Source: Escherichia phage JMPW1
DNA length: 49,628 nucleotides
Strand: one strand, 5' to 3'
Sequence record: NC_041874.1
A model generated the notes under the pieces. The model worked only from the letters and a program-made list of their open reading frames with translations. It was not told where the DNA came from and did not search any database. Each line of letters begins with the position of its first letter. Within the stretch, counting starts at the first letter, position 1. Shown here piece by piece: positions 61 through 49,628 of the stretch. The translations under genes were made by a program, and so were the position numbers.

Positions 61-105
61 GGGGATCTAGTGTTGCCCGGTTCGCCTGGTAGTCATCTCC
101 ATTTT

Positions 106-120
106 TAGCAAAAAGTGCTA
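106..120. promoter_or_regulatory. palindrome TAGCAaaaagTGCTA (operator-like, no -10 at the usual distance)
   Basis: Perfect 5+5 inverted repeat. Flanks match the consensus ATAGCACTTTTTGCTAAAA on the minus strand. Lies in the large divergent control region. Confidence 0.5.
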
Positions 121-136
121 TCGATTACACTTTACC

Positions 137-165
137 TTGTCACAGATGTAATATTTGTCTAGAAT
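137..165 (+). promoter_or_regulatory. sigma70-type early promoter candidate
   Basis: TTGTCA (137-142), 17-nt spacer, TAGAAT (160-165); overlaps iteron 147-162. Confidence 0.5.
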
Positions 166-1040: not shown

Positions 1041-1055
1041 GCACTGAGCGGTAAA

Positions 1056-1098
1056 TAGCACTTTTTGTTAAAACCGGATCGGGATAACGCGGTATAGT
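1056..1098 (+). promoter_or_regulatory. palindrome-promoter cassette
   Basis: TAGCActtttTGTTA, 22-nt spacer, TATAGT 1093-1098; hairpin GGGATAAC/GTTATCCC spans the -10. Confidence 0.55.
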
Positions 1099-1326: not shown

Positions 1327-1797
1327 ATGACAACCATTACCGTATTTCTGGCTAAAGATGAGATTGATGGCGAAATGTCATTCTTCGCATTTGAGCACAA
1401 AACCGGATCGCACTGGCATATGTATAGCCGCTACACGGTTATCGATATCAACTCATACCGCGCAGGCTCACTTACTGAAAAGCTGGGTTGCTTCATTGGA
1501 GCTATCAAGGTGAACAATGGCTGCGAGTGGGCAGATGAGCACGAAGAGCGCCGCATGTGCAATATGATTAACCCGGTCTATCTTGAGTCGTTCGAGCTTG
1601 ATGCTGATGTGAACATTAAGGTGAGAAAGTCTGGTGAGTTATTGCCAGGGATGCGTGTGCTGACTGGTTACTCGGGCCGTAAGGTGTGGCGCACCGTATC
1701 GAAGATTCGCCAGCGTTCTGCAACATGCTACAGCGTATTCTTTGAAGATGGCTGGAATATGATGTCCGGTAGTGAGGTGAAGTATCTCACCAAATAG
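1327..1797 (+). CDS. hypothetical early protein (156 aa)
   Basis: Starts 3 nt after upstream stop; its TAG stop is the TAG of the next palindrome. Confidence 0.6.
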   Translation: MTTITVFLAKDEIDGEMSFFAFEHKTGSHWHMYSRYTVIDINSYRAGSLTEKLGCFIGAIKVNNGCEWADEHEERRMCNMINPVYLESFELDADVNIKVRKSGELLPGMRVLTGYSGRKVWRTVSKIRQRSATCYSVFFEDGWNMMSGSEVKYLTK

Positions 1798-1837
1798 CAC
1801 GAATTGTTAAAACCGGATCGGGGTATCTTGCTATAGT
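1795..1837 (+). promoter_or_regulatory. palindrome-promoter cassette
   Basis: TAGCAcgaatTGTTA, 22 nt, TGcTATAGT 1832-1837; hairpin GGGGTA/TACCCC. Confidence 0.55.
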
Positions 1838-2626: not shown

Positions 2627-2818
2627 ATGGCTGATTTTATGCACCAAATGATTGCAGTATTCAAAGGTAGTGATGACCAGGAGGTGAAAGAGTGCTTTAC
2701 TGTAGACAAGCCTTATAGCGCATCGCTAACCAGCTTCGGGAATATCTCATTGCTTGATGATAACGGCGACCCCTGGGTATTCGACGAAGACACTGATTGC
2801 TTCGAAATTAAAGAATAG
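2627..2818 (+). CDS. hypothetical acidic protein (63 aa)
   Basis: ORF track; D/E-rich; TAG stop lies inside next palindrome. Confidence 0.5.
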   Translation: MADFMHQMIAVFKGSDDQEVKECFTVDKPYSASLTSFGNISLLDDNGDPWVFDEDTDCFEIKE

Positions 2819-2858
2819 CACTTTTTGTTAAAACTCAATATCGGGGTTGCGCTATAGT
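2816..2858 (+). promoter_or_regulatory. palindrome-promoter cassette
   Basis: TAGCActtttTGTTA, 22 nt, TATAGT 2853-2858; hairpin GGGGTT/AACCCC. Confidence 0.55.
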
Positions 2859-2889: not shown

Positions 2890-3378
2890 ATGAAAATCAA
2901 ATTGCTTTGCACTGGCGGTTACAAGGGCTTTACTCGCGACCTGGAAGCGGATCCTATCGTGATTGATGCGGTGAAGTGTGATGATAGCCTCGGCGGCTAC
3001 CGCGTGAAGGTTGACGACCTGGTGAAAGCTGGCGTGTACGATCTGGGCTATGGACTTTCGGTTAGCCCGGTAGTTGGTCCGGCAGACTTCAACGAGAAGG
3101 ATGGAACGATGTTCTTCTTCGAATGGGAAGTCCAGGCAAATCCTAAGCCGCGCAAGGTTCGTCTTCTCAGTAATGGCGGCTACCCGATGCGTCCAGGTTA
3201 TGAGAATCGCACATTCCCGGTTATCGTTGACTTTGAAGAAATCACCGCACACTTAGCTTATATCAACGGTGAACAGCTTCATGCTGTTGGATTCGTGGGA
3301 TGTATGAATCAAGAGGCGCTATGCTTCTTCCATTGTAAAGCCGAGCCGTTCGATATTGAGTGCGAGTTAGTATACTAA
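2890..3378 (+). CDS. hypothetical protein with internal tandem duplication (162 aa)
   Basis: Follows cassette 2816-2858. Repeats KIKLLCTGGYKGF...PIVIDAV and KVRLLSNGGYPMRPGY...PVIVDFE. Confidence 0.6.
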   Translation: MKIKLLCTGGYKGFTRDLEADPIVIDAVKCDDSLGGYRVKVDDLVKAGVYDLGYGLSVSPVVGPADFNEKDGTMFFFEWEVQANPKPRKVRLLSNGGYPMRPGYENRTFPVIVDFEEITAHLAYINGEQLHAVGFVGCMNQEALCFFHCKAEPFDIECELVY

Positions 3379-3419
3379 GCACGAATTGTTAAAAGGGGAT
3401 TTGGCCTGACTGGTATAAT
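3377..3419 (+). promoter_or_regulatory. palindrome-promoter cassette
   Basis: AAGCAcgaatTGTTA, 22 nt, TGgTATAAT 3414-3419; hairpin GGGGATT/AATCCCC. Confidence 0.55.
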
Positions 3420-4030: not shown

Positions 4031-4102
4031 AACAAGGTACGGGAAGTAATTGCAGAGAATAAGCCGTTCGGATATGAAGTAAAAACGATGTGCGTTAAAC
4101 GA

Positions 4103-4145
4103 TAGCACGAATTGCTAAACCTTCCGCAAGGCCATTTGATATAGT
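4103..4145 (+). promoter_or_regulatory. palindrome-promoter cassette
   Basis: TAGCAcgaatTGCTA, 22 nt, TGaTATAGT 4140-4145; hairpin AAGGCCA/TGGCCTT. Confidence 0.6.
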
Positions 4146-4185
4146 GGCCTTATTGAAGCAAGGCAACCAATCAGAGGAATCAGCT

Positions 4186-5462: not shown

Positions 5463-5665
5463 CAGCAGAAGATGCAGCACGCGACGCAGTGGAAGGAATG
5501 CGCCCAAATACCTCCAGAATAGCACACTACTACAAATCTGAGGTGTCGGCAGTGCAATTGGTCAACGAAATTTTAAGGCTACCACAAGTCGATTCAGCGC
5601 GCGTGGTGACGTGCTTAAAAAATTATTTTTGCATCGCTATTAAAACGAATAGCACGAATTGCTAA
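5447..5665 (+). CDS. hypothetical early protein (72 aa)
   Basis: ORF track; stop lies in palindrome 5650-5664. Confidence 0.45.
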   Translation: MATIITAEDAARDAVEGMRPNTSRIAHYYKSEVSAVQLVNEILRLPQVDSARVVTCLKNYFCIAIKTNSTNC

Positions 5666-5692
5666 AACCTATCAAGGGGAATGCGCTATGAT
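5650..5692 (+). promoter_or_regulatory. palindrome-promoter cassette
   Basis: TAGCAcgaatTGCTA, 22 nt, TATGAT 5687-5692; hairpin GGGAAT/ATTCCC. Confidence 0.5.
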
Positions 5693-5722: not shown

Positions 5723-6169
5723 ATGAAACACTTAATTTGCATTGAAACGCCTAACGACCAGTACACCCTGCACGGCATTGGAATGTTCAAAGGTCACTAC
5801 ATGACAGCAAGTATTCATGATTCGCGTTGCGTCAATGGCGATCTGATGATTACGTCAAAAGAAGTAACTCCGTACATTATGCAGAATCTTGGCAATAACG
5901 AATATATGGCCTACGGATGCAATGCGGTGTACAAGCATATCAAGATCAGAAAACGCGTTGTTCGCGCATTCAAGAAAATTGCAATGAAACAATGGAAGAT
6001 GAGCAAGAAAGATGCTGGACGCTGGGCGCGTAACGTTGCAGATTCATACTTCTACCGTAACGGTGAGTCCTGCCACTTCCTTATCGATGAACTTATGGAA
6101 AACTACGGCGGCGACTTCAGTCAGGGTGGCTTTGACGCTTGGGCTGACTACGAGGTCGATTACTGGTAA
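5723..6169 (+). CDS. hypothetical early protein (148 aa)
   Basis: ATG after ACGAGGAAGCACTC. The 5681 start in the ORF track overlaps the -10 hexamer TATGAT 5687-5692. Confidence 0.55.
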   Translation: MKHLICIETPNDQYTLHGIGMFKGHYMTASIHDSRCVNGDLMITSKEVTPYIMQNLGNNEYMAYGCNAVYKHIKIRKRVVRAFKKIAMKQWKMSKKDAGRWARNVADSYFYRNGESCHFLIDELMENYGGDFSQGGFDAWADYEVDYW

Positions 6170-6212
6170 TAGCACGAATTGCTAAAACTTGCTCAAGGGC
6201 ATTTGATAGAAT
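6170..6212 (+). promoter_or_regulatory. palindrome-promoter cassette
   Basis: TAGCAcgaatTGCTA, 22 nt, TGaTAGAAT 6207-6212; hairpin AAGGGCAT/ATGCCCTT. Confidence 0.6.
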
Positions 6213-6252
6213 GCCCTTCGTTGAGTTAAGCAACCAATCAGAGGAATAAATC

Positions 6253-6972: not shown

Positions 6973-7545
6973 ATGAAAACAGCTATCATTTTAAACGGTG
7001 CGCCTGGCGCGGGAAAAGACACTATAGGGTGCATCCTGGCTGACACTTACGATCATGTAGCGCTACGCAGCTTTAAAGCTCCAATGTTTGAGATTGCCCG
7101 AGCAATCCTGGGTGAGACTAATTTTGAGTATTTCATGTTCTTGTATGAGGACCGTCGCTATAAAGAAGAGCCAGCATCAATCCTGAACGGTAAAAGCCCG
7201 CGCCAGTTTATGATCTGGATTAGCGAGGAGGTTATCAAGCCGCAGTTCGGAAATCGCTTCTTCGGTATGCGAGCGGAAAGCAAGGTGAAAGAGTCTCACT
7301 CCCTTTCGGTATTTACTGACGGTGGATTCAAAGACGAAATCTTGCAGATGATTGAAGGTGAAATCCAGGTCAAGCTATGTCGAATCCATCGCAACGGTTG
7401 CAACTTTGACAACGACAGTCGCGACTACATCTATCTTGACGATATGATCGGGGTCAACGGTTATCAGGAATGTGACTTCTTCTCTGTCGAAGGTCATCCA
7501 GAAATTACCGCTCAGCACATAGCCGCCACGTTCATCAACAAATAG
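6973..7545 (+). CDS. P-loop kinase of the phage dNMP-kinase family
   Basis: Walker A GAPGAGKDT; LNGKSP and SPRQFMIWISEE blocks resemble T4 gp1 dNMP kinase (GKDT, LNGKSP). Confidence 0.7.
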   Translation: MKTAIILNGAPGAGKDTIGCILADTYDHVALRSFKAPMFEIARAILGETNFEYFMFLYEDRRYKEEPASILNGKSPRQFMIWISEEVIKPQFGNRFFGMRAESKVKESHSLSVFTDGGFKDEILQMIEGEIQVKLCRIHRNGCNFDNDSRDYIYLDDMIGVNGYQECDFFSVEGHPEITAQHIAATFINK

Positions 7546-7585
7546 CACGAATTGCTAAAACGTCGGTGGGGTGACTTGATATAGT
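7543..7585 (+). promoter_or_regulatory. palindrome-promoter cassette
   Basis: TAGCAcgaatTGCTA, 22 nt, TGaTATAGT 7580-7585; imperfect hairpin GGGGTGAC/GTTACCTC. Confidence 0.6.
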
Positions 7586-7617
7586 TACCTCATCGACAAC
7601 GAAGAGAGAAAATCGAA

Positions 7618-9365: not shown

Positions 9366-9388
9366 TGGTAAAATAGCACTAAATGTTA
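9366..9388 (+). promoter_or_regulatory. extended -10 promoter overlapped by palindrome (terS)
   Basis: TGgTAAAAT (9366-9374); its last T is the first base of TAGCActaaaTGTTA (9374-9388), 18 nt before the terS ATG. Confidence 0.45.
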
Positions 9389-9406
9389 AACAAAGAGGAT
9401 GGATTT

Positions 9407-9970: not shown

Positions 9971-11539
9971 ATGATTCAATGGGAAGACCTTAACGCAACG
10001 CAGAAGTTAGCGATCAAGAAAATGAGCGAGGCCAATTTCGAAAAAATGATTCGGATCTGGTTCCAGCTTATGCAGGCGCAGCAGTTCCAGCCTAACTGGC
10101 ATCACCTTTACCTATGTCACGAAGTGGAGGAAATAATTGCAGGCCGACGCGGCAACACTATCTTTAACGTCACGCCTGGTTCCGGTAAAACTGAAGTGTT
10201 CTCAATTCACCTTCCGGTATACGCAATGCTCAAGTGTAAAAAGGTGCGAAACCTTAACGTGTCGTTTGCCGACAGCTTGGTTAAGCGTAACAGTAAGCGT
10301 GTCCGTGAGATTATCAGCAGCAACGAATTTCAAGAGCTATGGCCTTGCAAGTTCGGCACATCGAAAGACGAGGAGATGCAGGTTCTTAACGAAGATGGAA
10401 AGGTTTGGTTTGAGTTGATATCCGCAGCGGCTGGAGGTCGTATTACAGGTTCGCGTGGTGGCTACATGACGCCGGGATTCTCCGGTATGGTAATGCTCGA
10501 CGATATCGACAAGCCTGATGATATGTTCTCAAAGGTTAAGCGTGAGCGTACGCATATGCTACTGAAGAACACCATTCGCTCGCGCCGTATGCACAACGAA
10601 ACGCCAATCATCGCAATTCAGCAGCGACTACACGCACAGGATTCAACATGGTTCATGATGAATGGCGGGATGGGGATCGAGTTTGATCAAATCTCAATTC
10701 CGGCACTGGTGACTGAAGAATACGGAAAGACGCTTCCTGACTGGTTACAACCATACTTCGAGCGCGACGTTTTGTCGTCTGAGTATGTAGAATTGGATGG
10801 AGTTAAGCATTACTCATTCTGGCCCAGCAAGGAAAGCGTTCACGACCTGTTAGCTCTTCGAGAAGCGGACCAGTATACCTTTGACTCTCAGTATCAGCAG
10901 AAGCCGATCGCGCTTGGTGGCTCCGTGTTCAATTCGGAGTGGTGGACTTATTACGGCAGCAGCCTTGACGCTGATGAGCCGGATCCTGGTAAATATGATT
11001 ACCGTTTTATCACCGCTGATACCGCTCAGAAGACAGGTGAGCTAAACGACTACACAGTCTTTTGTTTATGGGGTAAGAAAAACGATAAGGTTTACTTTAT
11101 CGACGGCATTCGCGGAAAGTGGGAAGCGCCGGATATGGAGAAGCAATTTACCGCTTTCGTCAACCAAGCATGGAGGCACAATAAATCAATGGGGGTGCTT
11201 CGTAAAATCTATGTGGAAGATAAGGCGAGTGGTACGGGCTTAATCCAGAATCTAAGGAAAAAGACTCCGATATCCATCACTCCATTGCAGCGTAACAAAG
11301 ACAAAGTTACCCGAGCTATGGATGCCCAGCCAGTTATTAAAGCCGGGCGCGTGGTTCTGCCAGAAGAGCACCCCATGCTTGCGGAAATTATCGCGGAACA
11401 TAGCGCGTTCACTTACGATGACACGCATCCGCACGACGATATTGTCGATAACTTCATGGACGCTGCAAACATTGAACTACTGACAATTGACGATCCTATC
11501 GAGAGAATGAAGCGACTCGCCGGGATGGTTAAGCGGTAA
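9971..11539 (+). CDS. terL: terminase large subunit
   Basis: Walker A VTPGSGKTE, Walker B-like MVMLDDID, C-terminal RNaseH-like nuclease region (ITADTAQK...FCLWG...DD); GGGAG SD before ATG 9971. Confidence 0.9.
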   Translation: MIQWEDLNATQKLAIKKMSEANFEKMIRIWFQLMQAQQFQPNWHHLYLCHEVEEIIAGRRGNTIFNVTPGSGKTEVFSIHLPVYAMLKCKKVRNLNVSFADSLVKRNSKRVREIISSNEFQELWPCKFGTSKDEEMQVLNEDGKVWFELISAAAGGRITGSRGGYMTPGFSGMVMLDDIDKPDDMFSKVKRERTHMLLKNTIRSRRMHNETPIIAIQQRLHAQDSTWFMMNGGMGIEFDQISIPALVTEEYGKTLPDWLQPYFERDVLSSEYVELDGVKHYSFWPSKESVHDLLALREADQYTFDSQYQQKPIALGGSVFNSEWWTYYGSSLDADEPDPGKYDYRFITADTAQKTGELNDYTVFCLWGKKNDKVYFIDGIRGKWEAPDMEKQFTAFVNQAWRHNKSMGVLRKIYVEDKASGTGLIQNLRKKTPISITPLQRNKDKVTRAMDAQPVIKAGRVVLPEEHPMLAEIIAEHSAFTYDDTHPHDDIVDNFMDAANIELLTIDDPIERMKRLAGMVKR

Positions 11540-16073: not shown

Positions 16074-16101
16074 TTGACGCTTTAACAAAAAGTGCTATTA
16101 T
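16074..16101 (+). promoter_or_regulatory. promoter candidate with palindrome in the spacer (capsid gene)
   Basis: TTGACG (16074-16079), 16 nt, TATTAT (16096-16101). TAACAaaaagTGCTA (16083-16097) fills the spacer and -10. A terminator-like hairpin follows, so function is uncertain. Confidence 0.3.
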
Positions 16102-19806: not shown

Positions 19807-19844
19807 CTGTAAAATCATCCTATCAACTCTATTCACTTAACTTT

Positions 19845-19859
19845 TAACAAAAAGTGCTA
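19845..19859. promoter_or_regulatory. palindrome TAACAaaaagTGCTA upstream of tail chaperone gene
   Basis: Consensus flanks are in minus orientation, 22 nt from TGaTAGGAT on the minus strand. On the plus strand it abuts the leader CAACCAATCAGGAG. Confidence 0.4.
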
Positions 19860-19881
19860 TCAACCAATCAGGAGAAACATC

Positions 19882-25836: not shown

Positions 25837-25883
25837 GCCTGTATAATGAGTCCACCGATAAATAGCACAAAAAGGTAAACATC

Positions 25884-30599: not shown

Positions 30600-31116
30600 T
30601 CCTCGTCGTTAGTGTGATTGCATTGTATGTCGCATTTACTTTTATTGCAATAGCACTATTACAATTTTTTCGTGTAACAGGTGTCTATTTTTGTAACCGG
30701 AGCGGGTGTTACAAAATCCACCCCATCCGACCGCAGAGGGATATGATAAAAACTCTATATAATATATATAGATAGATAATATTTAATTTTAGCTTTATAT
30801 ATAATTATTGTTGTGTAACAGTTGTCTATTGTGTAACTGGTGATTTGATTGATTCGTCAAATTTCTATCATATATGTTCAAAATTTAATCAATATGGATT
30901 CTACTTGTAGCTATCTCTGTATTTCTAAGAAAAAGCGGTTACAAGTATTACACAGTAGACATCACATAAAAATAGACTTAAGCCATTGATTCCGTTAATG
31001 CTGGTTGTAACTTGAGCGATATAGACACGCTATTACACACCAATTACATGTATCCGATTGACTAAACGCTGTTAATGGCTATAATGGATTCATCGTAAAC
31101 GAAGGAGATAAACGCA
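30600..31116. repeat. control region B: paralog of region A
   Basis: GTGTAACAGGTGTCTAT 30672-30688; GTGTAACAGTTGTCTATTGTGTAAC 30813-30838; inverted copies 30938-30962 and 31021-31040; 17-mer at 30755-30771; GATTGCA repeats 30613-30650. Confidence 0.7.
31058..31085 (+). promoter_or_regulatory. near-consensus sigma70 promoter of recombination operon
   Basis: TTGACT (31058-31063), 16-nt spacer, TATAAT (31080-31085); 31 nt upstream of ATG 31117. Confidence 0.6.
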
Positions 31117-32181: not shown

Positions 32182-32182
32182 A

Positions 32183-32224
32183 CGGCACAAATAGCTAAAC
32201 AAATAATTAATGAGGTGTTATAAT
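32183..32224 (+). promoter_or_regulatory. degenerate palindrome-promoter cassette
   Basis: CGGCAcaaatAGCTA, 21 nt, TGtTATAAT 32219-32224; hairpin GAGGTG/CACCTC; leader ACCAATCAGGAG. Confidence 0.45.
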
Positions 32225-33398: not shown

Positions 33399-35243
33399 TG
33401 ATTGTTTAAGTGATTTTATTTCTTCTTTTAGAGAAGATACTTGCTTTGAAAGCTCCTGTATCGCAGCTATAGCGTCAAGCAAAAGAACGTTCTCATCCAG
33501 TGATAGCGTGTAATCTTCTCCATTCATATTTCCGTACTTTCTAACGTACTGACTATCTATGCTCATAAGTTGTTGAGCTATGAACCCTCTCCTTACAGTT
33601 TTCTCCTTGTCATAATTGTATGTGAATGATCGGTATTTCATTTTCATCAAATTATCAAGCGCCAATCTTGTTTCAATATCATTTATGTCGCTTTTAAGTC
33701 TCTCATCTGACACTGGAGACTTTGAAAATATATAGTTGACAGTACCTGAGTTATTCCCAAACGTTATGTCGTAACTCTCAGCGTTGAACGATGTATTCCT
33801 TACAATGTTACCGTTTGGCTGATTACCTGAAGCTATATCATAATCGTACACCTGAGATATTACCGCGTGGGGGTGAGAACCATTTGGAAAAATAAGCGAA
33901 CCAAGAGAGATAAAATTCCTCCAACCGCCGTTGGATACACCAACGCCGCCACCAACTAAACCAATATAACCGCTGTACTGAGAACTCATCCATGTGTTAG
34001 CCAATGTCAAATAGGTATTACCTGGAGCATATCCAGTTCCATTTGGTACTAGACCCTTGTTAAAAATCAACTTTCCGTCCAGTTTGAAATCCCACGTTGC
34101 CGCGCCCTGCTTATATCTGTCATTGATTGTTGTTATCCTTGTCCATATATCTATTTCATTACCTCCCTGCAATTCGAAAGAGGATCTGTACTTATCAACT
34201 TCACCAACCTTGAATTTTGAATCAATCCTGCCGCCTGAAGAATCGGAACCGCTTGGCGGCTCAGAGTCTACATTTTTATAAATAGACCAGTCGTTTACTT
34301 TTAGGCCTTTCTCAACCCAACCCTTAGTAGTTGCGTCCATATTGCCTTCAGGATCTTTAAGTAACTCTAATGGGGCGTCTGGCCTCAAGTTTTTCCATGA
34401 TTCTAATTTATCCTCAAGACCAGCTAAATTACCGTCCTTAGTTAAAAGATTGTCAGCATTAACGCTATTTGCTGCGTCTTTCGCTTCCTGAGCACTTACT
34501 GCCGCCGCGTCTTTTGAACTAACCGCATCATCACGCGCCGATTGAGCATCGTTCTTTGCAGAGGTTGCAGTTTGTGCTGCCGTTTGAGCGTCATTAACGT
34601 AACCTGATAAATCACCTTTCGCCTCATTAATGGCCTGAATCGCTGCCGCCTCTTCAGTGTCAATGTGAGTGATGACAGATGATTCCTTAGATCCGATATC
34701 AGTAATAGCCTGTTCCTTTGCTGCATTAATACTACCTACAGCACCGTCAACAATTTGTTGAGTCTGGTTCTTGATTGAGTTAGTTTCATCGCGTGCAGCG
34801 TTGGCTGCGTCACGCGCTAATTCAGCCTGATTTTGCGCAGCTTGAGAATCAGGTTTCGCCTTATTCACCTCAGTAACTATTTGCTCAAGTTTATCCATAT
34901 CAAGCTGATTGATGATATCAAGAGCCGCAGCAATCTCAGTTTCTTTGCTCTGGTAGTATCGCAGCGTTTCAGCAACGTTTTGAGCTAAGCCGTTTACAGT
35001 CAGTGAATCGTTAAGCAGGATCACATACTTACCGTCAGCGGCAGTCTGACCATCCGTAGAGATAGCCTTTAACTCAGTGTCGCTCACGATATCGCTGATT
35101 ACAGCCAGCTTAATTGGTTGCTCCAGGAATACGATAGTTGCACCTACTCGAATCAGAGCAAGCTGATCCTTCCATTTTGTATCGGTTCCGCGAACCGTTC
35201 CATCTGCATCCATTGATGCTGTACCGCGTCTATATAAAGCCAT
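33396..35243 (-). CDS. tail fibre with C-terminal intramolecular chaperone (peptidase S74) domain
   Basis: Ala/Gln/Asp coiled-coil shaft; C-terminus SDERLKSDINDI...RSFTYN...RRGFIAQQL...LSLDENVLLLDAIAAIQELSKQ typical of S74 chaperone domains. Confidence 0.85.
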   Translation of the reverse strand: MALYRRGTASMDADGTVRGTDTKWKDQLALIRVGATIVFLEQPIKLAVISDIVSDTELKAISTDGQTAADGKYVILLNDSLTVNGLAQNVAETLRYYQSKETEIAAALDIINQLDMDKLEQIVTEVNKAKPDSQAAQNQAELARDAANAARDETNSIKNQTQQIVDGAVGSINAAKEQAITDIGSKESSVITHIDTEEAAAIQAINEAKGDLSGYVNDAQTAAQTATSAKNDAQSARDDAVSSKDAAAVSAQEAKDAANSVNADNLLTKDGNLAGLEDKLESWKNLRPDAPLELLKDPEGNMDATTKGWVEKGLKVNDWSIYKNVDSEPPSGSDSSGGRIDSKFKVGEVDKYRSSFELQGGNEIDIWTRITTINDRYKQGAATWDFKLDGKLIFNKGLVPNGTGYAPGNTYLTLANTWMSSQYSGYIGLVGGGVGVSNGGWRNFISLGSLIFPNGSHPHAVISQVYDYDIASGNQPNGNIVRNTSFNAESYDITFGNNSGTVNYIFSKSPVSDERLKSDINDIETRLALDNLMKMKYRSFTYNYDKEKTVRRGFIAQQLMSIDSQYVRKYGNMNGEDYTLSLDENVLLLDAIAAIQELSKQVSSLKEEIKSLKQS

Positions 35244-35264
35244 AGTATAAACTCCTTAAGTAAA

Positions 35265-35295
35265 TAGCACTAATTGCTAAACGCTGATTTTATCA
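35265..35295 (-). promoter_or_regulatory. extended -10 promoter followed by palindrome (tail fibre)
   Basis: Minus strand reads TGaTAAAAT (35295-35287), 7 nt, TAGCAattagTGCTA (35279-35265), then AAGGAG and the fibre ATG. Confidence 0.45.
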
Positions 35296-35320
35296 TTGTG
35301 CTATCCGACTTGCAATGGAC

Positions 35321-35344
35321 AATAAAAAACCGCCAGAAGGCGGT
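35321..35344 (-). terminator. intrinsic terminator after primase gene
   Basis: Minus strand: ACCGCC ttct GGCGGT then TTTTTTATT. Confidence 0.75.
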
Positions 35345-36279
35345 CAGAGTAGGTCACTTGCTGAGAATAACTTGGCTTGCATTCCTGAGCGGTATCCTCC
35401 AGGATTTGGGATGATTATTTTTAATTGTCGGTCGTCTGCCATGTATAAAGTCTCCTTGTCTGAAGGTTCGCACGCAACCCTTACTTCTCGATCCCCTTTA
35501 TATCTGTATGCAACCATTTCCAGATTCTCAGGAGTGAAGCAGGCCCATACCTCTTGCTTTGTGTGAAATGCAATATGCTGAGCATCAATCCAATTAAGGC
35601 ATAAGTAGATCGCTTTTTCTGTTTTACCAGTCACGGCAACCGAGCAACTTGTGTATTTCTTAGCGTAAAATGACTCCCTACCCTCCTCATCAATAATCAA
35701 AATATTACAAAACTCATCATCAAGACCGTCCTCGTGTACAAGTTGACATGGTATGGTGTGAAATACGCTCTCGCCGCCATCCTCGCGACGTTTTACGCCA
35801 ACGTCGAATGATTCAGTAGGTAGAGATTCAAACATGCTTAGAGGTGTGTTTACGCGCTTCTCTGTGCGCTCCATGACTTTCATCACCGCTTCATGATCTG
35901 CCATCATGACATTGACACCAGATACCGGAGTTCGGCGCGCTTTCTTGTTTGCCTTGACGATGTATTCCTGCGGAACTTTTCCGAGAAATCTTCCCAGGAT
36001 ATTTATGCATTCGCTATACGGCATACCAGTTAATTTCATTAGCCACCCGATCCCGGAGTCGTTACCGCATGAGTTGCAGATCGCACCTCCGTCGCCCGGA
36101 GTGTTCAGGTTATCAGTCCAGCGAAAGCGGTCTTTACCTCCGCAGTTAGGGCAAGGTTGGTGCTTCTTATTAAAAACATCATTCGGCAATCCGCAGATTG
36201 ATTGGAAAGCCTCGCGCCATAACCCCTTCATGTACGGCAAAACGTCCTCTTTCTGAAACATCATAAATTCTTCGTTCAC
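35344..36279 (-). CDS. DNA primase (Zn-ribbon + Toprim type)
   Basis: HQPCPNCGGKDRFRWTD...GGAICNSCG matches the primase Zn-ribbon of T7 gp4 / P4 alpha type. Confidence 0.8.
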   Translation of the reverse strand: MNEEFMMFQKEDVLPYMKGLWREAFQSICGLPNDVFNKKHQPCPNCGGKDRFRWTDNLNTPGDGGAICNSCGNDSGIGWLMKLTGMPYSECINILGRFLGKVPQEYIVKANKKARRTPVSGVNVMMADHEAVMKVMERTEKRVNTPLSMFESLPTESFDVGVKRREDGGESVFHTIPCQLVHEDGLDDEFCNILIIDEEGRESFYAKKYTSCSVAVTGKTEKAIYLCLNWIDAQHIAFHTKQEVWACFTPENLEMVAYRYKGDREVRVACEPSDKETLYMADDRQLKIIIPNPGGYRSGMQAKLFSASDLL

Positions 36280-36291
36280 TTCCAGATCTCC

Positions 36292-36332
36292 AAAATAAAA
36301 AACGCGTAGAAGGATGTTAACCCGCTACGCGT
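36292..36332 (-). terminator. intrinsic terminator after HTH gene
   Basis: Minus strand: ACGCGTAG ...15 nt... CTACGCGT then TTTTTATTTT. Confidence 0.6.
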
Positions 36333-36340
36333 CGTTTGTT

Positions 36341-36793
36341 TTAACTAAAAATGCTATTGGTCGTTCCGATATCTTCCTTCTTCACGACGCGCATAAATTT
36401 CTTGTTCTTGCATCGCTTCTCAAGGCACTTGCCGTTACCGTCAAACTTCAGGTCGAATCGCAACCATGCGGCACGAAATCCTTTGCACCCCTGTCGGCGG
36501 TAAGCGCGATGCGCAGCTTCAGCGCCTTGCCATGAAATCATATTTCGATCTTTCCAGCCTTGCACCGTCTGATTGCTAACTTTTAGAGCCTTTGCGCAGG
36601 CCGCAGGGCCGCCGTAATATTCGATAAGAGCATCAAGTCGCGCTCGCAGTCCGGCGCGTGTTTCTTCTTTATGAATATAGAACCCGCAACGCTGTCGAGG
36701 CTTTTTATCTTTACCGCGCCGTGTTCCGTTGTTACCATTGATGTGACGTTTATCGATTTTACCAGTTGATTCTGCGATACGTTGAATACTCAT
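36341..36793 (-). CDS. HTH DNA-binding protein (Cro/YdaS-like) with basic N-terminus
   Basis: ACAKALKVSNQTVQGWKDRNMIS helix-turn-helix; divergent from helicase gene across palindrome 36807-36821; followed by terminator. Confidence 0.6.
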   Translation of the reverse strand: MSIQRIAESTGKIDKRHINGNNGTRRGKDKKPRQRCGFYIHKEETRAGLRARLDALIEYYGGPAACAKALKVSNQTVQGWKDRNMISWQGAEAAHRAYRRQGCKGFRAAWLRFDLKFDGNGKCLEKRCKNKKFMRVVKKEDIGTTNSIFS

Positions 36794-36806
36794 CTTGATT
36801 CTCCTA

Positions 36807-36849
36807 TAGCACTTTTTGCTAAAAACGTTTACTTTATGCCGTGTATTAT
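36807..36849 (+). promoter_or_regulatory. palindrome-promoter cassette (helicase); shared divergent region with HTH gene
   Basis: TAGCActtttTGCTA, 22 nt, TATTAT 36844-36849. Confidence 0.5.
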
Positions 36850-36886
36850 AGCGTAAACGTTACAACGATTCAAAGGATTAATAGCC

Positions 36887-38905
36887 GTGACAATGAACAT
36901 TAAAAAACAGATTGCGTTACTTGGAGAGGACTACATAAAGCGAACTCAGGAGCGATTCACTGTAGGTGAGGTAGTTCCTTATCCGTATCAGGTTGTTGCT
37001 TACGCCGAGATCGCGAAGCGCTTGTCAAATTATGAGCACCCATTCTTCGTTAAAGCGTCTGTATCCGCAGGCAAGACAATTATTTTCGCTATGGTGGCAA
37101 AGCAGTGTCAGAAAATGGGCTTAAAAATGCTTGTCCTGGCTCGACAGGGTGAGATTGTCGATCAGGATAGCGAAGAGATCGACAACTTCGGGGTAACGAA
37201 CTCCATCTTCTCAGCATCGCTTGGAATCAAGTCCTGCTACTTCCCGATCGTGGTTGGCTCTGAGGGTACGGTTGCAAATGGCCTCGACAATGAGTTGGCT
37301 GATTTTGTCCCGCATGTAATTGGGATCGACGAATGTCACCAGGTGGATTGGGAAGACCTTGCGCAAGCCATCGAGGGTAAGGAAACAATGGAACAGATGA
37401 GGGGCGAGAAAGGGAAAATTATCATGGACGGAGATATTCCCCTGATTGGTAATGATGGAAAACCTTTGCTTGGAACTAAGCGTAGTCAGTACACGATCGT
37501 AATCATGGAAATGATGCGGCGCTGTAAAAAGGTTCACGGGCACGATCTTAGAATATTCGGCATGACGGGATCTGAATTTCGTGGCGTAGTTCCTATTCTG
37601 GTAGAGAATCCGAAAGCATTGGGATTCTGGCGTGAGCGAGTAACTGATATCGACACAAACTATCTGATTGAGTTCGGCTCTGTCGTTCCGACTATATTCG
37701 GATCAACAGACGGAGTTCATTACGATCTGGATAAGTTCAAGGCGTCTAGCGAGGACGGAGTGCAGGACTTTACAGAGAAAGACATGAAGGCTATGGAAGA
37801 TGAGATCCTTCATGATAAATCTCTGACTCAGCGAATCATGCAAATGGTCGCCAAAAAGGCAGAAGAACGCAATGCGGTCTTGATTACATGTGCTGGTGTG
37901 CGCCACTGCAAAGAGGCAGCGGCAGCACTTCCTCCGGGAAGCACCTATGCAATTATTACTGGCGACACAGACAACAAATCGCGCAAGAAGATTCTGGACG
38001 ATGTAAGGGCTGGGAAAATTAAATACACCTTTCAGGTTATGGCGCTCACTACTGGCGTTAACGTTCCAAATTGGGATTTCAGTGTCATACTCCGCAAGAT
38101 AGGGTCGCTCACACTATTGATTCAACTTTTGGGTAGGGGTATGCGTCTGCTTAAATCCTGGCAGGTTGCTGAGGGAATGGTTAAGCAGGACCATCTGGTA
38201 TGGGATTTCGCAGGTACGATGGATGAGTTGGGTCAGCTTTATTTCGATCCGATACTTGAGCAGGCGCAATTCCAAAATCGTTTTGAAAACGGCAAAGATC
38301 CGAAAACATGTCCGAAATGCGGTTGCGTAAATAGCTTCTATGCTCGACGATGCGTTAATGTCATTGATGGTGAACGTTGCGATCATTTCTGGACTTCTCA
38401 AATTTGTGAGGACCAGGTTGACGAGCGCACCGGAAAAATCCTTGTTAAAGGATGCGGTGCAGAGAATGACGTTGTGGCCCGAGTCTGTCGCTGTTGCGAT
38501 GTTTCTCTTGTTGATCCTAACCTTAAGTTATCCGGTAAGGCGTACACTAAGAATGACTGGTACGAGGTCAAGAATTTTGAAGTTACGTTAACCAAAAACC
38601 AAAAGGGTGTGATATACAAATACACACTTATTAATGATGAGGGTGACGAGTTCAAGGCGTATGAAAAATTCTTCCCTGAGTCAGACTCTAAGATTTGCGG
38701 TACGCTATGGAAAACGAAAGGAGTATTACCTCACGTATCAGATCCTAAAATGCGCCGCTACTTTATCGGAATGAAGAACGCCATCAAGATCGTGCAGTAC
38801 GCACATCATATTGCTCACCCGGTGCGCGTAACTCATCGTCGCAACCAGAAGAAAGAAGATATTATCTCACGCAAAGACTTCGGTATGGAGGATATCCCGG
38901 AATGA
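36887..38905 (+). CDS. SF2 (DEAH-type) ATP-dependent DNA helicase with C-terminal Zn-fingers
   Basis: Walker A SVSAGKT, DEAH box GIDECH, motif VI LLGRGMR; CPKCGC...RRC and CRCC clusters; GTG start 9 nt after AAGGA. Confidence 0.85.
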   Translation: MTMNIKKQIALLGEDYIKRTQERFTVGEVVPYPYQVVAYAEIAKRLSNYEHPFFVKASVSAGKTIIFAMVAKQCQKMGLKMLVLARQGEIVDQDSEEIDNFGVTNSIFSASLGIKSCYFPIVVGSEGTVANGLDNELADFVPHVIGIDECHQVDWEDLAQAIEGKETMEQMRGEKGKIIMDGDIPLIGNDGKPLLGTKRSQYTIVIMEMMRRCKKVHGHDLRIFGMTGSEFRGVVPILVENPKALGFWRERVTDIDTNYLIEFGSVVPTIFGSTDGVHYDLDKFKASSEDGVQDFTEKDMKAMEDEILHDKSLTQRIMQMVAKKAEERNAVLITCAGVRHCKEAAAALPPGSTYAIITGDTDNKSRKKILDDVRAGKIKYTFQVMALTTGVNVPNWDFSVILRKIGSLTLLIQLLGRGMRLLKSWQVAEGMVKQDHLVWDFAGTMDELGQLYFDPILEQAQFQNRFENGKDPKTCPKCGCVNSFYARRCVNVIDGERCDHFWTSQICEDQVDERTGKILVKGCGAENDVVARVCRCCDVSLVDPNLKLSGKAYTKNDWYEVKNFEVTLTKNQKGVIYKYTLINDEGDEFKAYEKFFPESDSKICGTLWKTKGVLPHVSDPKMRRYFIGMKNAIKIVQYAHHIAHPVRVTHRRNQKKEDIISRKDFGMEDIPE

Positions 38906-39318
38906 TTACAGACAAAGGTGATTATTTAGAGTTTTACGAGCGAGATCCCAGCGACACTCGAAAGGAGGACGCTCATCAGGTGGATTGTGTGTCCTGGCTG
39001 AAATACAATTTCCCTCACCTTCTATTTTGGCACACTGTCAATGAAGGTGAAAAAACAATCACATCAGCGCTCAGGGATGAGCAGGCCGGATTACTTAAAG
39101 GAGTGTCGGACTTCGTTATCCTGATTGGTGTTAACTCAAGATACCCGTTTGCAGCAATCGAACTTAAGCGGGTTAATAAGTCAGGCAAAGGAAAGGCGTC
39201 ACCAGTCAGCGACAAGCAAAGGGAATTTCTCAGAAAGGTCATGGAGCGTGGCGGCTTCTCTGCCGTCGCATACGGATTTGAGCAATTCAAGATCGCAATT
39301 TACGAAATGATGAAATAG
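38902..39318 (+). CDS. VRR-NUC domain nuclease
   Basis: GVSDFVIL...AAIELKR...SDKQREFL matches the D..ExK..Q VRR-NUC pattern; ATGA overlap with helicase. Confidence 0.8.
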   Translation: MITDKGDYLEFYERDPSDTRKEDAHQVDCVSWLKYNFPHLLFWHTVNEGEKTITSALRDEQAGLLKGVSDFVILIGVNSRYPFAAIELKRVNKSGKGKASPVSDKQREFLRKVMERGGFSAVAYGFEQFKIAIYEMMK

Positions 39319-39358
39319 CACTTTTTGTTAAAACTGCCGGAATGGAATCTGGCATTAT
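39316..39358 (+). promoter_or_regulatory. palindrome-promoter cassette (dam)
   Basis: TAGCActtttTGTTA, 22 nt, TGgCATTAT 39353-39358. Confidence 0.5.
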
Positions 39359-40099: not shown

Positions 40100-40347
40100 T
40101 GAACGAGAAAATGATTCCGGTTAAGTTAACTGATCAAGGTTTATGGCTGCTTTATCGAGCTACCTGCTGCGAAATTATGGAGCGAAACGGATTGACTCAG
40201 GATGTTATTGGTTGCGATCTGTGGGAGTTCACTAGTTCTCTTGATATGTCTTTCGATGAGATAAAAAATGAATACATAGAGAATTGGCCTTCAATCATAC
40301 AGAAAGACGTGGAAGAACTTAAAGCTGATACAATCGTACAGCACTAA
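40096..40347 (+). CDS. hypothetical protein (83 aa)
   Basis: ATGA overlap with dam. Confidence 0.5.
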   Translation: MMNEKMIPVKLTDQGLWLLYRATCCEIMERNGLTQDVIGCDLWEFTSSLDMSFDEIKNEYIENWPSIIQKDVEELKADTIVQH

Positions 40348-40381
40348 TTGCTAAAAATACCCGACGAAAGTCGGGTATAGT
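40339..40381 (+). promoter_or_regulatory. palindrome-promoter cassette
   Basis: CAGCActaatTGCTA, 22 nt, TATAGT 40376-40381; hairpin CCCGAC/GTCGGG in the spacer. Confidence 0.5.
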
Positions 40382-41183: not shown

Positions 41184-42335
41184 ATGTCACAAGCTAAAAT
41201 CACTACCGAGCAACTTGTCGAAGAGCGCATGAACGGCCTTACACTTCGCGAGATCGCGGAAAAGTACGGTATGCATATTCGAACTGTTGAGGCTCGACAC
41301 GCAAAATTGGCAAAAGAAGGCCACTTTCACGGCAATGAGCATGTTGCTAAAAACGTTCCTGAAGGCTTCATGGTAAAAGGCACATCAACAATGATTCGCG
41401 GTGATGGGACTGAGGTCGTGCGATGGGTTAAGACCGATCAGGACCGTGAGAAGATTGCAGCTATGATGGAAGCTGCACGCATTGCATTTTGTGAAGACTT
41501 GCCGCGAGCAAAGCCAACTGAGCTGCTCACATCGCAAGGTCTTACAACCTCTATTGGAAAGCTGGCACTATACCCGGTGTTCGATCTTCACATTGGCGCG
41601 CTTGCTCATAAGCATGAATGTGGAGAGAACTACTCTACCGACGTAGCGGAAAAAGTGCTTAGCGACTTCTTTAATTACGCGATCGATATTGCTCCGAACG
41701 CAGAGAAGGCCGTTCTTTTAATCGGCGGTGACTTCCTTCACTCGGACGGTCTTGATGCTGTTACCCCGGCAAGTGGTCACGTTCTGGATCAGGATTCACG
41801 ATATGCAAAATTGGTGCATGTAGCTATTAGATCTGTTCGTCGCGCTATCGACAAAATGCTACTGAAACACAAAGAAGTCGAGGTCCAGGTTATCGAAGGG
41901 AACCACGATCAGTCTGGGATGATTTGGCTGCGCGCTGCAATGTCGGCATATTATGAAGACGAGCCGCGAGTATTCGTTGACGTTAGTCCTATGATTCTGC
42001 ATAAGACTCGTTGGGGAAATACCTTGTTGGGATACACTCACGGGCACACTATGAAAAAGGCAGAGACTCGACTCGCAGCTATGGCAGCAGATTTCCGCGC
42101 AGATTTTGGTGAAAGCAAATACGTGTACACGCATAGCGGTCACTGGCATCACCAGACAATCACTGAGCACTCACTCGGTATTGATGAGGTTCACGGCCAG
42201 TTAGGCGCGAAAGACGCATACGCAGCACGAGGAGGGTGGCGCTCGTATCGCCAGGCGGCTGTAATTGTTTACGATAAGCAATTTGGGGAAATCGGTCGTT
42301 TCATCTATCGTCCAGAAATGACAGGATCGCACTAA
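41184..42335 (+). CDS. HTH domain fused to calcineurin-like metallophosphoesterase
   Basis: N-terminal LTLREIAEKYGMHIRTVEARH HTH; phosphoesterase motifs DLHIG, GGDFLH, EGNHD, GHTH, SGHWHH. Confidence 0.7.
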   Translation: MSQAKITTEQLVEERMNGLTLREIAEKYGMHIRTVEARHAKLAKEGHFHGNEHVAKNVPEGFMVKGTSTMIRGDGTEVVRWVKTDQDREKIAAMMEAARIAFCEDLPRAKPTELLTSQGLTTSIGKLALYPVFDLHIGALAHKHECGENYSTDVAEKVLSDFFNYAIDIAPNAEKAVLLIGGDFLHSDGLDAVTPASGHVLDQDSRYAKLVHVAIRSVRRAIDKMLLKHKEVEVQVIEGNHDQSGMIWLRAAMSAYYEDEPRVFVDVSPMILHKTRWGNTLLGYTHGHTMKKAETRLAAMAADFRADFGESKYVYTHSGHWHHQTITEHSLGIDEVHGQLGAKDAYAARGGWRSYRQAAVIVYDKQFGEIGRFIYRPEMTGSH

Positions 42336-42369
42336 TTGATAAAAACTCCCGAAGGGATTCGGGCATAGT
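42327..42369 (+). promoter_or_regulatory. palindrome-promoter cassette (degenerate)
   Basis: TCGCActaatTGATA, 22 nt, CATAGT 42364-42369; hairpin CCCGAA/TTCGGG in the spacer. Confidence 0.45.
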
Positions 42370-45929: not shown

Positions 45930-45972
45930 ATGATACACCGCCAATGGTACACGCGTTTTGCAAAAAGTGCTA
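45930..45972 (-). promoter_or_regulatory. palindrome-promoter cassette
   Basis: Minus strand: TAGCActtttTGCAA, 22 nt, TATCAT (45935-45930); hairpin GGTGT/ACACC around the -10. Confidence 0.5.
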
Positions 45973-45976
45973 TTGG

Positions 45977-46429: not shown

Positions 46430-46472
46430 ACTTTATCAAATGACCTTACGGCAATATTAACAAATCGTGCTA
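46430..46472 (-). promoter_or_regulatory. palindrome-promoter cassette
   Basis: Minus strand: TAGCAcgattTGTTA, 22 nt, TGaTAAAGT (46435-46430); hairpin AAGGTCA/TGGCCTT; AACCAATCAGGAG leader. Confidence 0.55.
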
Positions 46473-46473
46473 T

Positions 46474-46944: not shown

Positions 46945-46988
46945 AATATACCTTACCCCCTATTGTATGTCTTTAGCAATTCGTGCTA
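46945..46988 (-). promoter_or_regulatory. palindrome-promoter cassette
   Basis: Minus strand: TAGCAcgaatTGCTA, 23 nt, TATATT (46950-46945). Confidence 0.5.
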
Positions 46989-47132
46989 TCAGTACTCAGA
47001 AATTACTTTGCACTCTTTGATTGTTCCACCCAAAACTACTTTCTGCATCATTGCTTTTTGTTGGCTATCGTAAACGCGAACATTTTTTACTCTGTTAAAT
47101 TTGCCAGTATAGAAGGTGTGAATATAAATCAT
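46989..47132 (-). CDS. possible hypothetical protein (47 aa)
   Basis: ATGA overlap with upstream stop; fills an otherwise empty 140-nt gap; its TGA abuts palindrome 46974-46988. Confidence 0.35.
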   Translation of the reverse strand: MIYIHTFYTGKFNRVKNVRVYDSQQKAMMQKVVLGGTIKECKVISEY

Positions 47133-48061: not shown

Positions 48062-48104
48062 ACTATACCAGCCATCCCGGATGCGCGTTTAGCAAAAAGT
48101 GCTA
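48062..48104 (-). promoter_or_regulatory. palindrome-promoter cassette
   Basis: Minus strand: TAGCActtttTGCTA, 22 nt, TGgTATAGT (48067-48062); hairpin GGGATG/CATCCC. Confidence 0.6.
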
Positions 48105-48105
48105 T

Positions 48106-48525: not shown

Positions 48526-48568
48526 ATTATGCCAAATCGCACCGATCGAGTTTTAACAAAAAGTGCTA
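48526..48568 (-). promoter_or_regulatory. palindrome-promoter cassette
   Basis: Minus strand: TAGCActtttTGTTA, 22 nt, TGgCATAAT (48531-48526). The palindrome lies inside the last codons of the C5-MTase gene. Confidence 0.55.
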
Positions 48569-49257
48569 TTTGCGATCGCTTTGAAAAATCCACGAGGAGA
48601 TAAGGAACGTATCAGCTTCGTTTTGGCAGACTTGCCGCCCAGCTTGTTTTGCTGTGCAGAGTACCCGTCATGCAGGTTTACAGGCTTCCTTTCTGGCATG
48701 ACAAAGTCGTCCGAAGTCCAAAGACAAGTTTTCTTCGGGTAAGCATCGCGCGGCGCAATATACATCGGGAACCAGGGGTGTGCGTCATTCTCAGGAAGAT
48801 AGCCGCCATACTCCCAGGGATTGAAAGTGTGGTCAGCCTTTCGCCAGGCTGATGACAGGACGCTAACCGGATTCTCAATGATGTAAGTCACACCCAGGCT
48901 ATCACCGATGTTCGCGGCAATCCGGGCGGTGGCAACAGCTTTCTCCTGGAATAGCGGATCACGTTTACGCTTGCTGGCAAAGTGTCGAGCACCACTAACG
49001 GCCAGGTCAGTGCACGGCGGGAAGGCCATAATGAAATCCGGCTTGCCATACACACCCGCGATCGCATCACGTTCGAACGTTTCATCAATGAACACGTTCA
49101 CATACTCAATGTTGGGATGCTCTACCCGGGCATTGTACTTTGCATAATCTCCGTGATCGGCTCCGTCAAAGTTGAAGCACATCACTTTATGACCTTGCTT
49201 TGCCAGTTCATGACCAGCCAGGCCCGAGCCGTCGAATAGTGACCAGATTAATTTCAT
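48553..49257 (-). CDS. DNA (cytosine-5)-methyltransferase, compact form
   Basis: Motif I LFDGSG, motif IV FPPCTDLAVSG (PC), motif VI IIENPV. The 3' end encodes palindrome 48554-48568. Confidence 0.8.
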   Translation of the reverse strand: MKLIWSLFDGSGLAGHELAKQGHKVMCFNFDGADHGDYAKYNARVEHPNIEYVNVFIDETFERDAIAGVYGKPDFIMAFPPCTDLAVSGARHFASKRKRDPLFQEKAVATARIAANIGDSLGVTYIIENPVSVLSSAWRKADHTFNPWEYGGYLPENDAHPWFPMYIAPRDAYPKKTCLWTSDDFVMPERKPVNLHDGYSAQQNKLGGKSAKTKLIRSLSPRGFFKAIANSTFC

Positions 49258-49498: not shown

Positions 49499-49542
49499 AT
49501 CATACCCTGCCGACCTGGCTGAGTCGTTAGCAAAAAATGCTA
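49499..49542 (-). promoter_or_regulatory. palindrome-promoter cassette (first of leftward operon)
   Basis: Minus strand: TAGCAtttttTGCTA, 23 nt, TATGAT (49504-49499); AACCAATCAGAGGA leader. Confidence 0.5.
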
Positions 49543-49628
49543 TTCCAATAATTGCTCATTATTCCATCAATAGCGGAATAGGTGGAATAATTCTGATTGC
49601 GATTGATTGCAAATGATGAAACGTGATT

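Follow-up and report, generated by a model that had tools for sequence, protein, structure and literature searches.

Which protein reads the box that is repeated throughout the genome of Escherichia phage JMPW1? The question is raised by a gene at 36341-36793 on the minus strand of the window, by which we mean the whole 49,628-nucleotide stretch (sequence record NC_041874.1). The 150-amino-acid (aa) product of this open reading frame (ORF) carries a helix-turn-helix (HTH) stretch, ACAKALKVSNQTVQGWKDRNMIS, and a basic N-terminus, GKIDKRHINGNNGTRRGKDKKPRQR. Its ATG at 36793 lies 13 nucleotides (nt) from the palindrome TAGCACTTTTTGCTA (36807-36821). An earlier note, made from the DNA letters alone, had described this arrangement correctly and proposed the product as the best candidate for a dimeric factor reading TAGCA-N5-TGCTA. 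The gene is already characterised as pir of coliphage T1, and the repeat, too, has been described before, as a 21-nt element. By its sequence, orientation and spacing, the box is a host marbox in the class II configuration. As its reader we tentatively favour a host activator, MarA, SoxS, Rob or a close relative bound as a monomer, over a Pir dimer; on present evidence, Pir is the less likely cognate reader.

TAGCA-N5-TGCTA occurs 10 times in the window, with 0.05 occurrences expected, which is far beyond chance. Relaxed searches gave about 26 window copies of a longer, directional 20-mer, ATAGCAC-(TTT/GAA/TAA)-TTG(C/T)TAAAAc, and only 10 of these contain the perfect palindrome. The right half of the box reads TTGTTA in around 40% of the copies. 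Position 14 is C in 61% and T in 28%, and G4 is invariant in the promoter cassettes of the window. The conserved flanks are A-rich on both sides and asymmetric. Judged from these copies, the palindrome is the core of a directional box of 20 base pairs (bp) and not a private operator of Pir. The symmetric 15-mer of the earlier note thus gives way to a directional 20-mer, which at this locus (36806-36825) points at the helicase gene.

Around 20 copies share one layout, which we call a cassette. The box is followed after 18 bp by a predicted -10-like hexamer (TATAGT, TATAAT, TAGAAT and others); this gap is found in at least 17 cassettes (about 20 copies). The hexamer is often preceded by TGn and is followed by a conserved leader (...CATCGACAACAAACGAGGA), and the start codon comes 50-64 nt after the box. 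Cassette boxes always point at the downstream gene, and these genes belong to the early, replication and lysis regions. The TTGCTA inside the box lies 22 bp from the -10. This is too far for sigma70, and TTGCTA was rejected as a -35 element. The box promoters therefore appear to lack a -35, and the box stands in its place. A family profile was built from 191 non-identical sites from 60 related loci, anchored only on GCA, AAA and TAnnnT. Across the family, 349 sites were anchored, and 191 of them show the 18-bp gap (mode 18). The information content is about 2 bits at GCA and at AAA, which are spaced like two adjacent major-groove contacts.

These features coincide with the marbox of the host. 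The 20-bp soxbox/marbox consensus is AYNGCACNNWNNRYYAAAYN. With at most one mismatch allowed, AYNGCACNNWNNRYYAAAY is found at 21 window sites (0.99 expected), and the helicase box departs from the consensus at position 19 only. The Grainger laboratory defines the marbox as gcannwwntgnnaaa, and exact matches to GCANNWWNTGNNAAA are likewise present at 21 window sites (0.94 expected). Identity to the MarA consensus from chromatin immunoprecipitation sequencing (ChIP-seq), gcactaattgctaaa, is 15/15 at 35267-35281 and 40341-40355, 14/15 for boxes with a GAA spacer and 13/15 for those with a TTT spacer. In the family profile, positions 1, 2, 7, 10, 13, 14 and 15 show the conservation expected from the 20-bp consensus, and positions 11-12 are mostly TT, like the ChIP-seq consensus. 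Position 19 is usually A and not the consensus Y, as it is also in micF. Position 3 (A) is conserved beyond both marbox definitions. Apart from this position, the conservation of the box at unanchored positions is, as far as the profile goes, already specified by the MarA consensus.

The promoter geometry agrees as well. In class II marbox promoters a forward marbox overlaps the -35, and RamA is positioned at about -41 at micF. The micF promoter of E. coli reads ACAGCACTGAATGTCAAAAC, 18 bp, TAGAAT, 7 nt and the transcription start. Its 20-mer, gap and -10 have the same geometry as the phage cassettes, in which the box is also forward and centred near -41 relative to the predicted transcription start. 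About 20 cassette boxes read GCAC...AAA towards the downstream gene, the same direction as in micF, and the class I marbox of mar, ATGCCACGTTTTGCTAAATC, is reversed, as expected. The phage differs from the host in having around 26 copies in 50 kb, much closer to the consensus than most host sites. MarA-family proteins are monomers with two HTH motifs and bind non-palindromic sites, and the marbox consensus itself contains the partial dyad GCA-N5-TGC. We found no report in the literature that identifies the repeat as a marbox. This identity makes the question of the box reader directly testable.

A first alternative is that the box has no dedicated protein reader. The same 21-nt repeat was reported in phages TLS, T1, Rtp and Rogue1 (German et al. 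2024, PMC11447400), with stoperator, enhancer and UP element suggested as its possible roles. The direct repeats of TLS, aaATAGCACnnnTTGnTAAAA, are the same element: there are 18 intergenic copies, co-directional with the genes and of TTT, GAA and AAA subtypes, and DR11 adjoins the pir promoter P57; German et al. mention neither a fixed spacing to the -10 nor a match to the marbox for TLS (PMC11447400). On such a reading the box would work at the level of structure or RNA, as part of a compact terminator-promoter module, as an UP-like element or as a stoperator-type roadblock, and extended -10 promoters would work alone. Many cassettes do combine a TGn extended -10 with a hairpin that brackets the -10, and some boxes sit directly beside ribosome-binding sites or have the reversed orientation within late promoters. 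However, information of about 2 bits at two triplets with major-groove spacing and a fixed distance of 18 bp to the -10 are typical of a protein site, and the exact marbox match would have to be a coincidence. UP elements are A/T-rich, unlike the box with its G+C-containing core. We consider this alternative very improbable.

The second alternative is Pir itself. Over the region 35200-37200, identity reaches 99.8% with phages vB_EcoS_IME167 and phi2013 and 93.6% with coliphage T1, and on this basis we assign the window to a T1-like phage (Tunavirus, Drexlerviridae). The product of the gene at 36341-36793 is 100% identical to that of the vB_EcoS_IME167 gene and 98% identical, over its full length, to Orf23 of T1 (locus L015; CPTT1_056 in the re-annotated T1 record, labelled 'transcriptional regulator'). 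PHROG 2856, also labelled 'transcriptional regulator', matches with an E-value of 2.8e-76. The gene lies downstream of and divergent from the helicase gene and upstream of the primase gene, and this order is kept in related loci. By sequence and synteny it is a member of the orthologous group of T1 Pir (PHROG 2856), the name given to Orf23 by Laganenka et al. (mBio 2019, PMC6737242). Compared with T1 Pir (PMC6737242), it is the gene of another isolate, at the same locus between primase and helicase and with the same promoter region. The family is narrow, with 22 clusters at E<1e-10 among 1.84 billion representative proteins; Pir is found in 823 phage records, mainly from phages of Enterobacterales.

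An AlphaFold2 (AF2) model of Pir was calculated with an alignment of 20 homologues. The mean predicted local distance difference test score (pLDDT) is 81, and all blocks over residues 41-130 exceed 90. Foldseek places the core close to the all-alpha Cro proteins Xfaso-1 (3bd1) and N15 (6on0, 2hin), with target TM scores of 0.64-0.73 and root-mean-square deviations of 1.9-2.7 Å over alignments of 55-67 columns. A profile search of PDB sequences returned Cro proteins at an E-value of about 0.01. According to the model, the HTH core of Pir has the all-alpha Cro fold, shared with 3bd1, 6on0 and P22 Cro (1rzs). The Pfam matches to P22_Cro (PF14549; E 5e-5, 23.4 bits) and YdaS (PF15943; E 1e-3, 19.2 bits) stay under their gathering cut-offs of 30.2 and 30, respectively; several Pir homologues carry precomputed matches to both families. 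No ydaT-like partner gene is found beside pir, where the neighbours are the primase and helicase genes.

Pir differs from the Cro proteins in size (150 aa versus a single domain of about 60-70 aa) and in having a conserved, disordered, basic N-terminal arm and a C-terminal extension. Residues 1-30 have a pLDDT of 47-54, indicating disorder. Segment 5-33 (RIAxSTGxxDxRxxNGNNGTRRGxDxxxR), modelled as disordered, is better conserved than any other part of Pir; among homologues that are only about 50% identical overall, most of the invariant residues fall within it. It could contact a conserved partner, DNA or RNA polymerase.

In the Pir alternative, a dimer on TAGCA-N5-TGCTA would act as a class II activator from about -41 and drive a switch from immediate-early to delayed-early transcription. 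Autorepression would come from the box in the pir leader and from the helicase promoter occluding the pir promoter, Ppir. A model is provided by phage middle and late activators that replace the -35, namely T4 MotA/AsiA, Mu Mor and C, and lambda CII; like the box promoters, theirs have no -35, a conserved upstream box and a normal -10. The MotA box is centred at -30 and requires AsiA, the Mor and C sites are dyads at -43.5, and the CII site is TTGC-N6-TTGC. To our knowledge, none of these boxes coincides with a host activator consensus, unlike the box described here. Pir has several points in its favour. It is the only recognisable transcription factor that accompanies the box family-wide, its gene stands behind one of few canonical promoters, as expected of an early activator, and a Cro fold implies dimers on dyads with a half-site spacing of 10 bp. 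It is also a proven regulator in T1, where reporters based on green fluorescent protein showed that it activates Phol and the boxed Pdam and represses its own promoter and PrecE (PMC6737242).

We mapped the published reporter primers onto the T1 and window sequences. The Pir-activated Pdam reporter contains a forward box, and the Ppir reporter, repressed by Pir and by the second T1 regulator Orf65, contains a reversed one. The Phol reporter, activated by Pir, has no box (the best match has 5 mismatches), and neither has PrecE, which Pir represses. Porf65 holds a perfect box and consists of only box, -10 and leader; it does not respond to Pir and is activated by Orf65. With boxless responders and a boxed non-responder, the Pir regulon therefore does not track the box. 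Pdam has a box of the TTT subtype and Porf65 one of the GAA subtype, so that one example of each is available for a Pir-activated and a Pir-independent box.

The protein also argues against this assignment. Docking by analogy with 434-type repressors suggests that positions 74, 75, 76 and 79 of the recognition helix (74-83) face the DNA. These positions read N-Q-T..G in T1, L-K-T..G in TLS, and T-K-V..G, H-G-A..W or V-C-R..N in other clades, and the box consensus is unchanged in 14 clades whose Pir contact positions differ. One would expect a protein that reads some 20-26 invariant sites to preserve the residues with which it contacts them, as host MarA, SoxS and Rob do. The right half-site TTGTTA, the asymmetric flanks and the conservation already explained by the MarA consensus point the same way. 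It appears that a Pir dimer is an unlikely reader, even if it has real merits. What stands of the earlier interpretation is a Cro-like regulator, an autoregulatory divergent layout and a helicase promoter; Pir as the best reader of the box is not supported.

A third alternative is another phage protein. It could be Orf65 (within Tunavirus), the SbcD-like exonuclease with its N-terminal HTH, which the earlier note named as its second candidate, or a factor that we did not recognise. Orf65 represses Ppir and activates its own promoter, which is Pir-independent (PMC6737242). Activation of the minimal box fragment Porf65 and repression of Ppir with its reversed box both fit a box binder. However, Orf65 homologues are present in 64 phage records, essentially of one genus, and the box is family-wide. 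The protein has no Pfam hit, and its PHROG is of unknown function, so there is no match to a DNA-binding family; as a MarA/AraC-like reader for the whole family it was rejected. The recognition helix of the exonuclease (xIRTVExRxxKL) is conserved across the clades examined, better than that of Pir. Its HTH matches are weak, with E-values of about 0.01, and the fusion to a nuclease suggests DNA targeting and not promoter activation. Searches of the window for a MarA/SoxS/Rob homologue by tblastn and with a three-sequence hidden Markov model, using approximate probe sequences, gave nothing below an E-value of about 1. There is thus no MarA-like ORF in these searches, and a phage-encoded homologue was rejected. 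We regard a reader of this third kind as improbable.

The architecture of the pir/helicase locus shows how a host activator could account for the behaviour of Ppir. The palindrome does belong to the divergent helicase promoter, as the earlier note had it (the box lies 18 bp before TATTAT), and the autoregulatory layout agrees with repression of Ppir by T1 Pir in reporter assays (PMC6737242). The -10 elements of pir and helicase overlap on opposite strands, and this back-to-back overlap is found in 14 of 17 representative clades. If transcription starts about 7 nt past the -10, as predicted, the box would fall within the pir transcript, between about +13 and +32. It adjoins the start of pir in all clades examined except one relative (L059), a conservation that also speaks for Pir as reader. 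The pir promoter scores 10/12 in our scan. It is one of about four strong (>=10/12) sigma70-type promoters in the intergenic DNA of the window (Table 1), and its counterpart P57 is one of only three predicted sigma70 promoters in TLS. Because the -10 elements overlap, any activator of the box promoter would appear as a repressor of Ppir. Ppir is also repressed by cAMP-CRP. Both canonical promoters assayed in T1, Ppir and PrecE, are repressed by Pir, which fits Pir opposing -35-dependent promoters generally.

In the explanation that we favour, pir is transcribed from a canonical sigma70 promoter, of which this genome has few. In about 20 copies the box takes the place of the -35, 18 bp before a predicted -10, for early, replication and lysis-region genes. 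A monomer of host MarA, SoxS or Rob would bind the box and recruit RNA polymerase to the helicase promoter. Polymerase at this promoter would in turn exclude Ppir and shut pir off. The sequence features are observed and the regulatory activity of Pir in T1 is known from the literature, whereas we infer where transcription starts, that one promoter occludes the other and which protein reads the box.

Several points weigh against this explanation. Unstressed cells contain little MarA and SoxS, and most of their Rob is sequestered, yet T1 multiplies quickly in ordinary cultures. Throughout the family Pir, present in 823 phage records, is found together with the box, and the only obvious upstream element of Pdam, which Pir activates in T1, is the box. 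The conserved N-terminal segment of Pir could contact the conserved box, and its half-sites, 10 bp apart, are spaced as a Cro-type dimer would need by analogy. The -10 assignments of the box promoters are predictions. Several late-region boxes sit outside the class II position. Finally, we found no paper in the literature that connects a T1-like phage with MarA, SoxS or Rob, and literature searches for mapped transcription start sites in Drexlerviridae and for studies of phage marboxes returned nothing relevant.

Where Pir itself might bind was examined in the reporter fragments. CGTAAA is the only non-trivial hexamer that the four Pir-responsive fragments have in common and that Porf65 lacks. 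Three hexamers are shared by the Pir-responsive fragments against 0.5 expected, which is not statistically significant. Sites of CGTAAA/TTTACG in the window lie at 36851-36861, 36824-36834, around 31095, around 39300 and around 42500, and two of them flank the -10 elements of pir and helicase. From sequence, CGTAAA is a weak hint at where Pir might bind. The Ppir spacer also holds palindromes that differ between clades (AACGTT-based in T1, AAATGGCATTT in TLS and others); compared by eye, they do not track the variants of the recognition helix, and they were rejected.

The boxes and related features are collected in Table 1. Box spacers fall into TTT (e.g., boxes at 1055, 2815, 36806, 39315 and 48086), GAA (1794, 3376, 4102, 5649, 6169, 7542 and 46970) and TAA (9373, 35264, 40338 and 42326) subtypes. 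Among the matches listed in a search for box clusters without Pir, contigs with several box hits are nearly all 46-53 kb long, as is typical of this family. In the relative L059 (IMGVR_UViG_2974632794, 53 kb) pir is seemingly split or truncated at approximately 10001-10346, where 43 aa of the N-terminus and the HTH are encoded as separate pieces. This relative lacks the usual box upstream of pir, and boxes elsewhere in that locus have a spacer shorter by 1 nt (TAGCACTTTTGTTAAAA).

About 15 of 22 cassettes have an inverted repeat around the -10, which lies in the loop (1076-1101, 4108-4160, 6190-6225, 7562-7597, 36824-36861 and others). The arms vary by cassette (GGGATAAC/GTTATCCC, AAGGCCA/TGGCCTT, AGGGCAT/ATGCCCT and others) in a way that looks compensatory. 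The hairpin after pir (36303-36331) and those at T57 and T62 of TLS have a T-run and are the terminators of the upstream genes. From its sequence, box plus hairpin looks like a compact terminator-promoter module.

Three late genes, those for the major capsid protein, the tail chaperone and the 615-aa tail fibre, are preceded by a box in the opposite orientation to the gene. The reversed box inside the spacer of the capsid promoter is, judged by its location, at a repression-type or stoperator-type position and not at an activation position. The boxes at 9373-9392 and 25862-25881 (both plus strand) cannot be class II promoters because there is no room for a -10 before the start codon. DR8 of TLS is the counterpart of the latter.

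Table 1. Coordinates of boxes, promoters, genes and protein segments in the window.
Feature	Position	Strand	Basis
Box, left end of window, no clear -10	102-121	-	
Strong sigma70-type intergenic promoter	137-165	+	score >=10/12
Box, cassette layout	1055-1074	+	marbox match, -10 scan
Box, cassette layout	1794-1813	+	marbox match, -10 scan
Box, cassette layout	2815-2834	+	marbox match, -10 scan
Box, cassette layout, TAAGCAC variant	3376-3395	+	15-mer match, -10 scan
Box, cassette layout	4102-4121	+	marbox match
Box of orf65 promoter, GAA subtype	5649-5668	+	published Porf65 reporter begins 9 nt upstream
orf65 orthologue, 148 aa, second T1 regulator	5723-6169	+	T1 comparison
Box, cassette layout, -10 TAGAAT like micF	6169-6188	+	marbox match
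Box, cassette layout	7542-7561	+	marbox match, -10 scan
Box 14 nt before start codon of small terminase, not class II position	9373-9392	+	marbox match
Major-capsid promoter, TTGACG-16-TATTAT, strong sigma70-type	16074-16101	+	score >=10/12
Reversed box within spacer of major-capsid promoter	16079-16098	-	marbox match, promoter scan
Reversed box just upstream of tail chaperone gene	19841-19860	-	marbox match
Box 2 nt before start codon of long tail-fibre gene	25862-25881	+	marbox match
Canonical PrecE promoter, TTGACT/TATAAT, without box, Pir-repressed in T1	31058-31085	+	promoter scan, reporter mapping
Box upstream of recombinase gene, gap 17, -10 TATAAT	32182-32201	+	marbox match
Box, core identical to MarA ChIP-seq consensus, reversed relative to adjacent 615-aa tail-fibre gene	35264-35283	+	
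Primase gene	35344-36279	-	ORF, family matches
pir terminator hairpin and T-run; loop contains primase -10 (TAACAT)	36303-36331	-	sequence, T1 annotation
Degenerate box ATAGCATTTTTAGTTAAAAC right after pir stop, primase promoter	36338-36357	-	relaxed search
pir coding sequence, 150 aa, ATG start	36341-36793	-	orthologue of T1 Orf23/Pir
Predicted HTH of Pir, residues 63-83, recognition helix NQTVQGWKDR	36545-36607	-	AF2 helices H63-70 and H74-83, Cro matches
N-terminal basic segment of Pir, residues 5-33	36695-36781	-	family alignment, AF2
pir Shine-Dalgarno AGGAG, abutting box	36801-36805	-	sequence
Box ATAGCACTTTTTGCTAAAAA, marbox-like, forward to helicase gene, includes palindrome 36807-36821	36806-36825	+	
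Inverted repeat AACGTTTAC (36824-36832)/GTAAACGTT (36853-36861) around both overlapping -10 elements	36824-36861		
Predicted -10 TATTAT of box-dependent helicase promoter, 18 bp past box	36844-36849	+	
pir sigma70 promoter, TTGAAT (36873-36868), 17-nt spacer, TATAAT (36850-36845)	36845-36873	-	scan, T1 annotation, TLS P57
Helicase gene, 672 aa, GTG start at 36887	36887-38905	+	ORF, family matches
Box of dam promoter, TTT subtype, -10 CATTAT, Pir-activated in T1	39315-39334	+	
Box, core identical to MarA ChIP-seq consensus, class II cassette layout	40338-40357	+	
N-terminal HTH of SbcD-like exonuclease	41184-41340	+	weak HTH matches
Box upstream of orf14 (gene preceding holin gene)	42326-42345	+	15-mer match
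Box, cassette layout	45954-45973	-	marbox match
Box, cassette layout	46454-46473	-	relaxed search
Box, cassette layout	46970-46989	-	marbox match
Box, cassette layout	48086-48105	-	marbox match
Box, cassette layout	48550-48569	-	marbox match
Degenerate box, cassette layout	49524-49543	-	relaxed search

It is quite possible, though we put it cautiously, that in T1-like phages (Drexlerviridae) some 20 promoters per genome, of early, replication and lysis-region genes, are built on consensus class II marboxes and are driven or gated by MarA, SoxS and Rob (RamA in Klebsiella). If this is true, Pir would act on other, clade-specific operators. Replicating phage DNA could titrate the host factor, and this and the reversed boxes in late promoters could aid the switch from early to late transcription. 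Infection by this very common family of gut phages would then respond directly to bile salts, salicylate, oxidants and antibiotics. The antibiotic and bile stress responses of the host would be coupled to the productivity of a family that is widely used in therapy cocktails and is a notorious laboratory contaminant.

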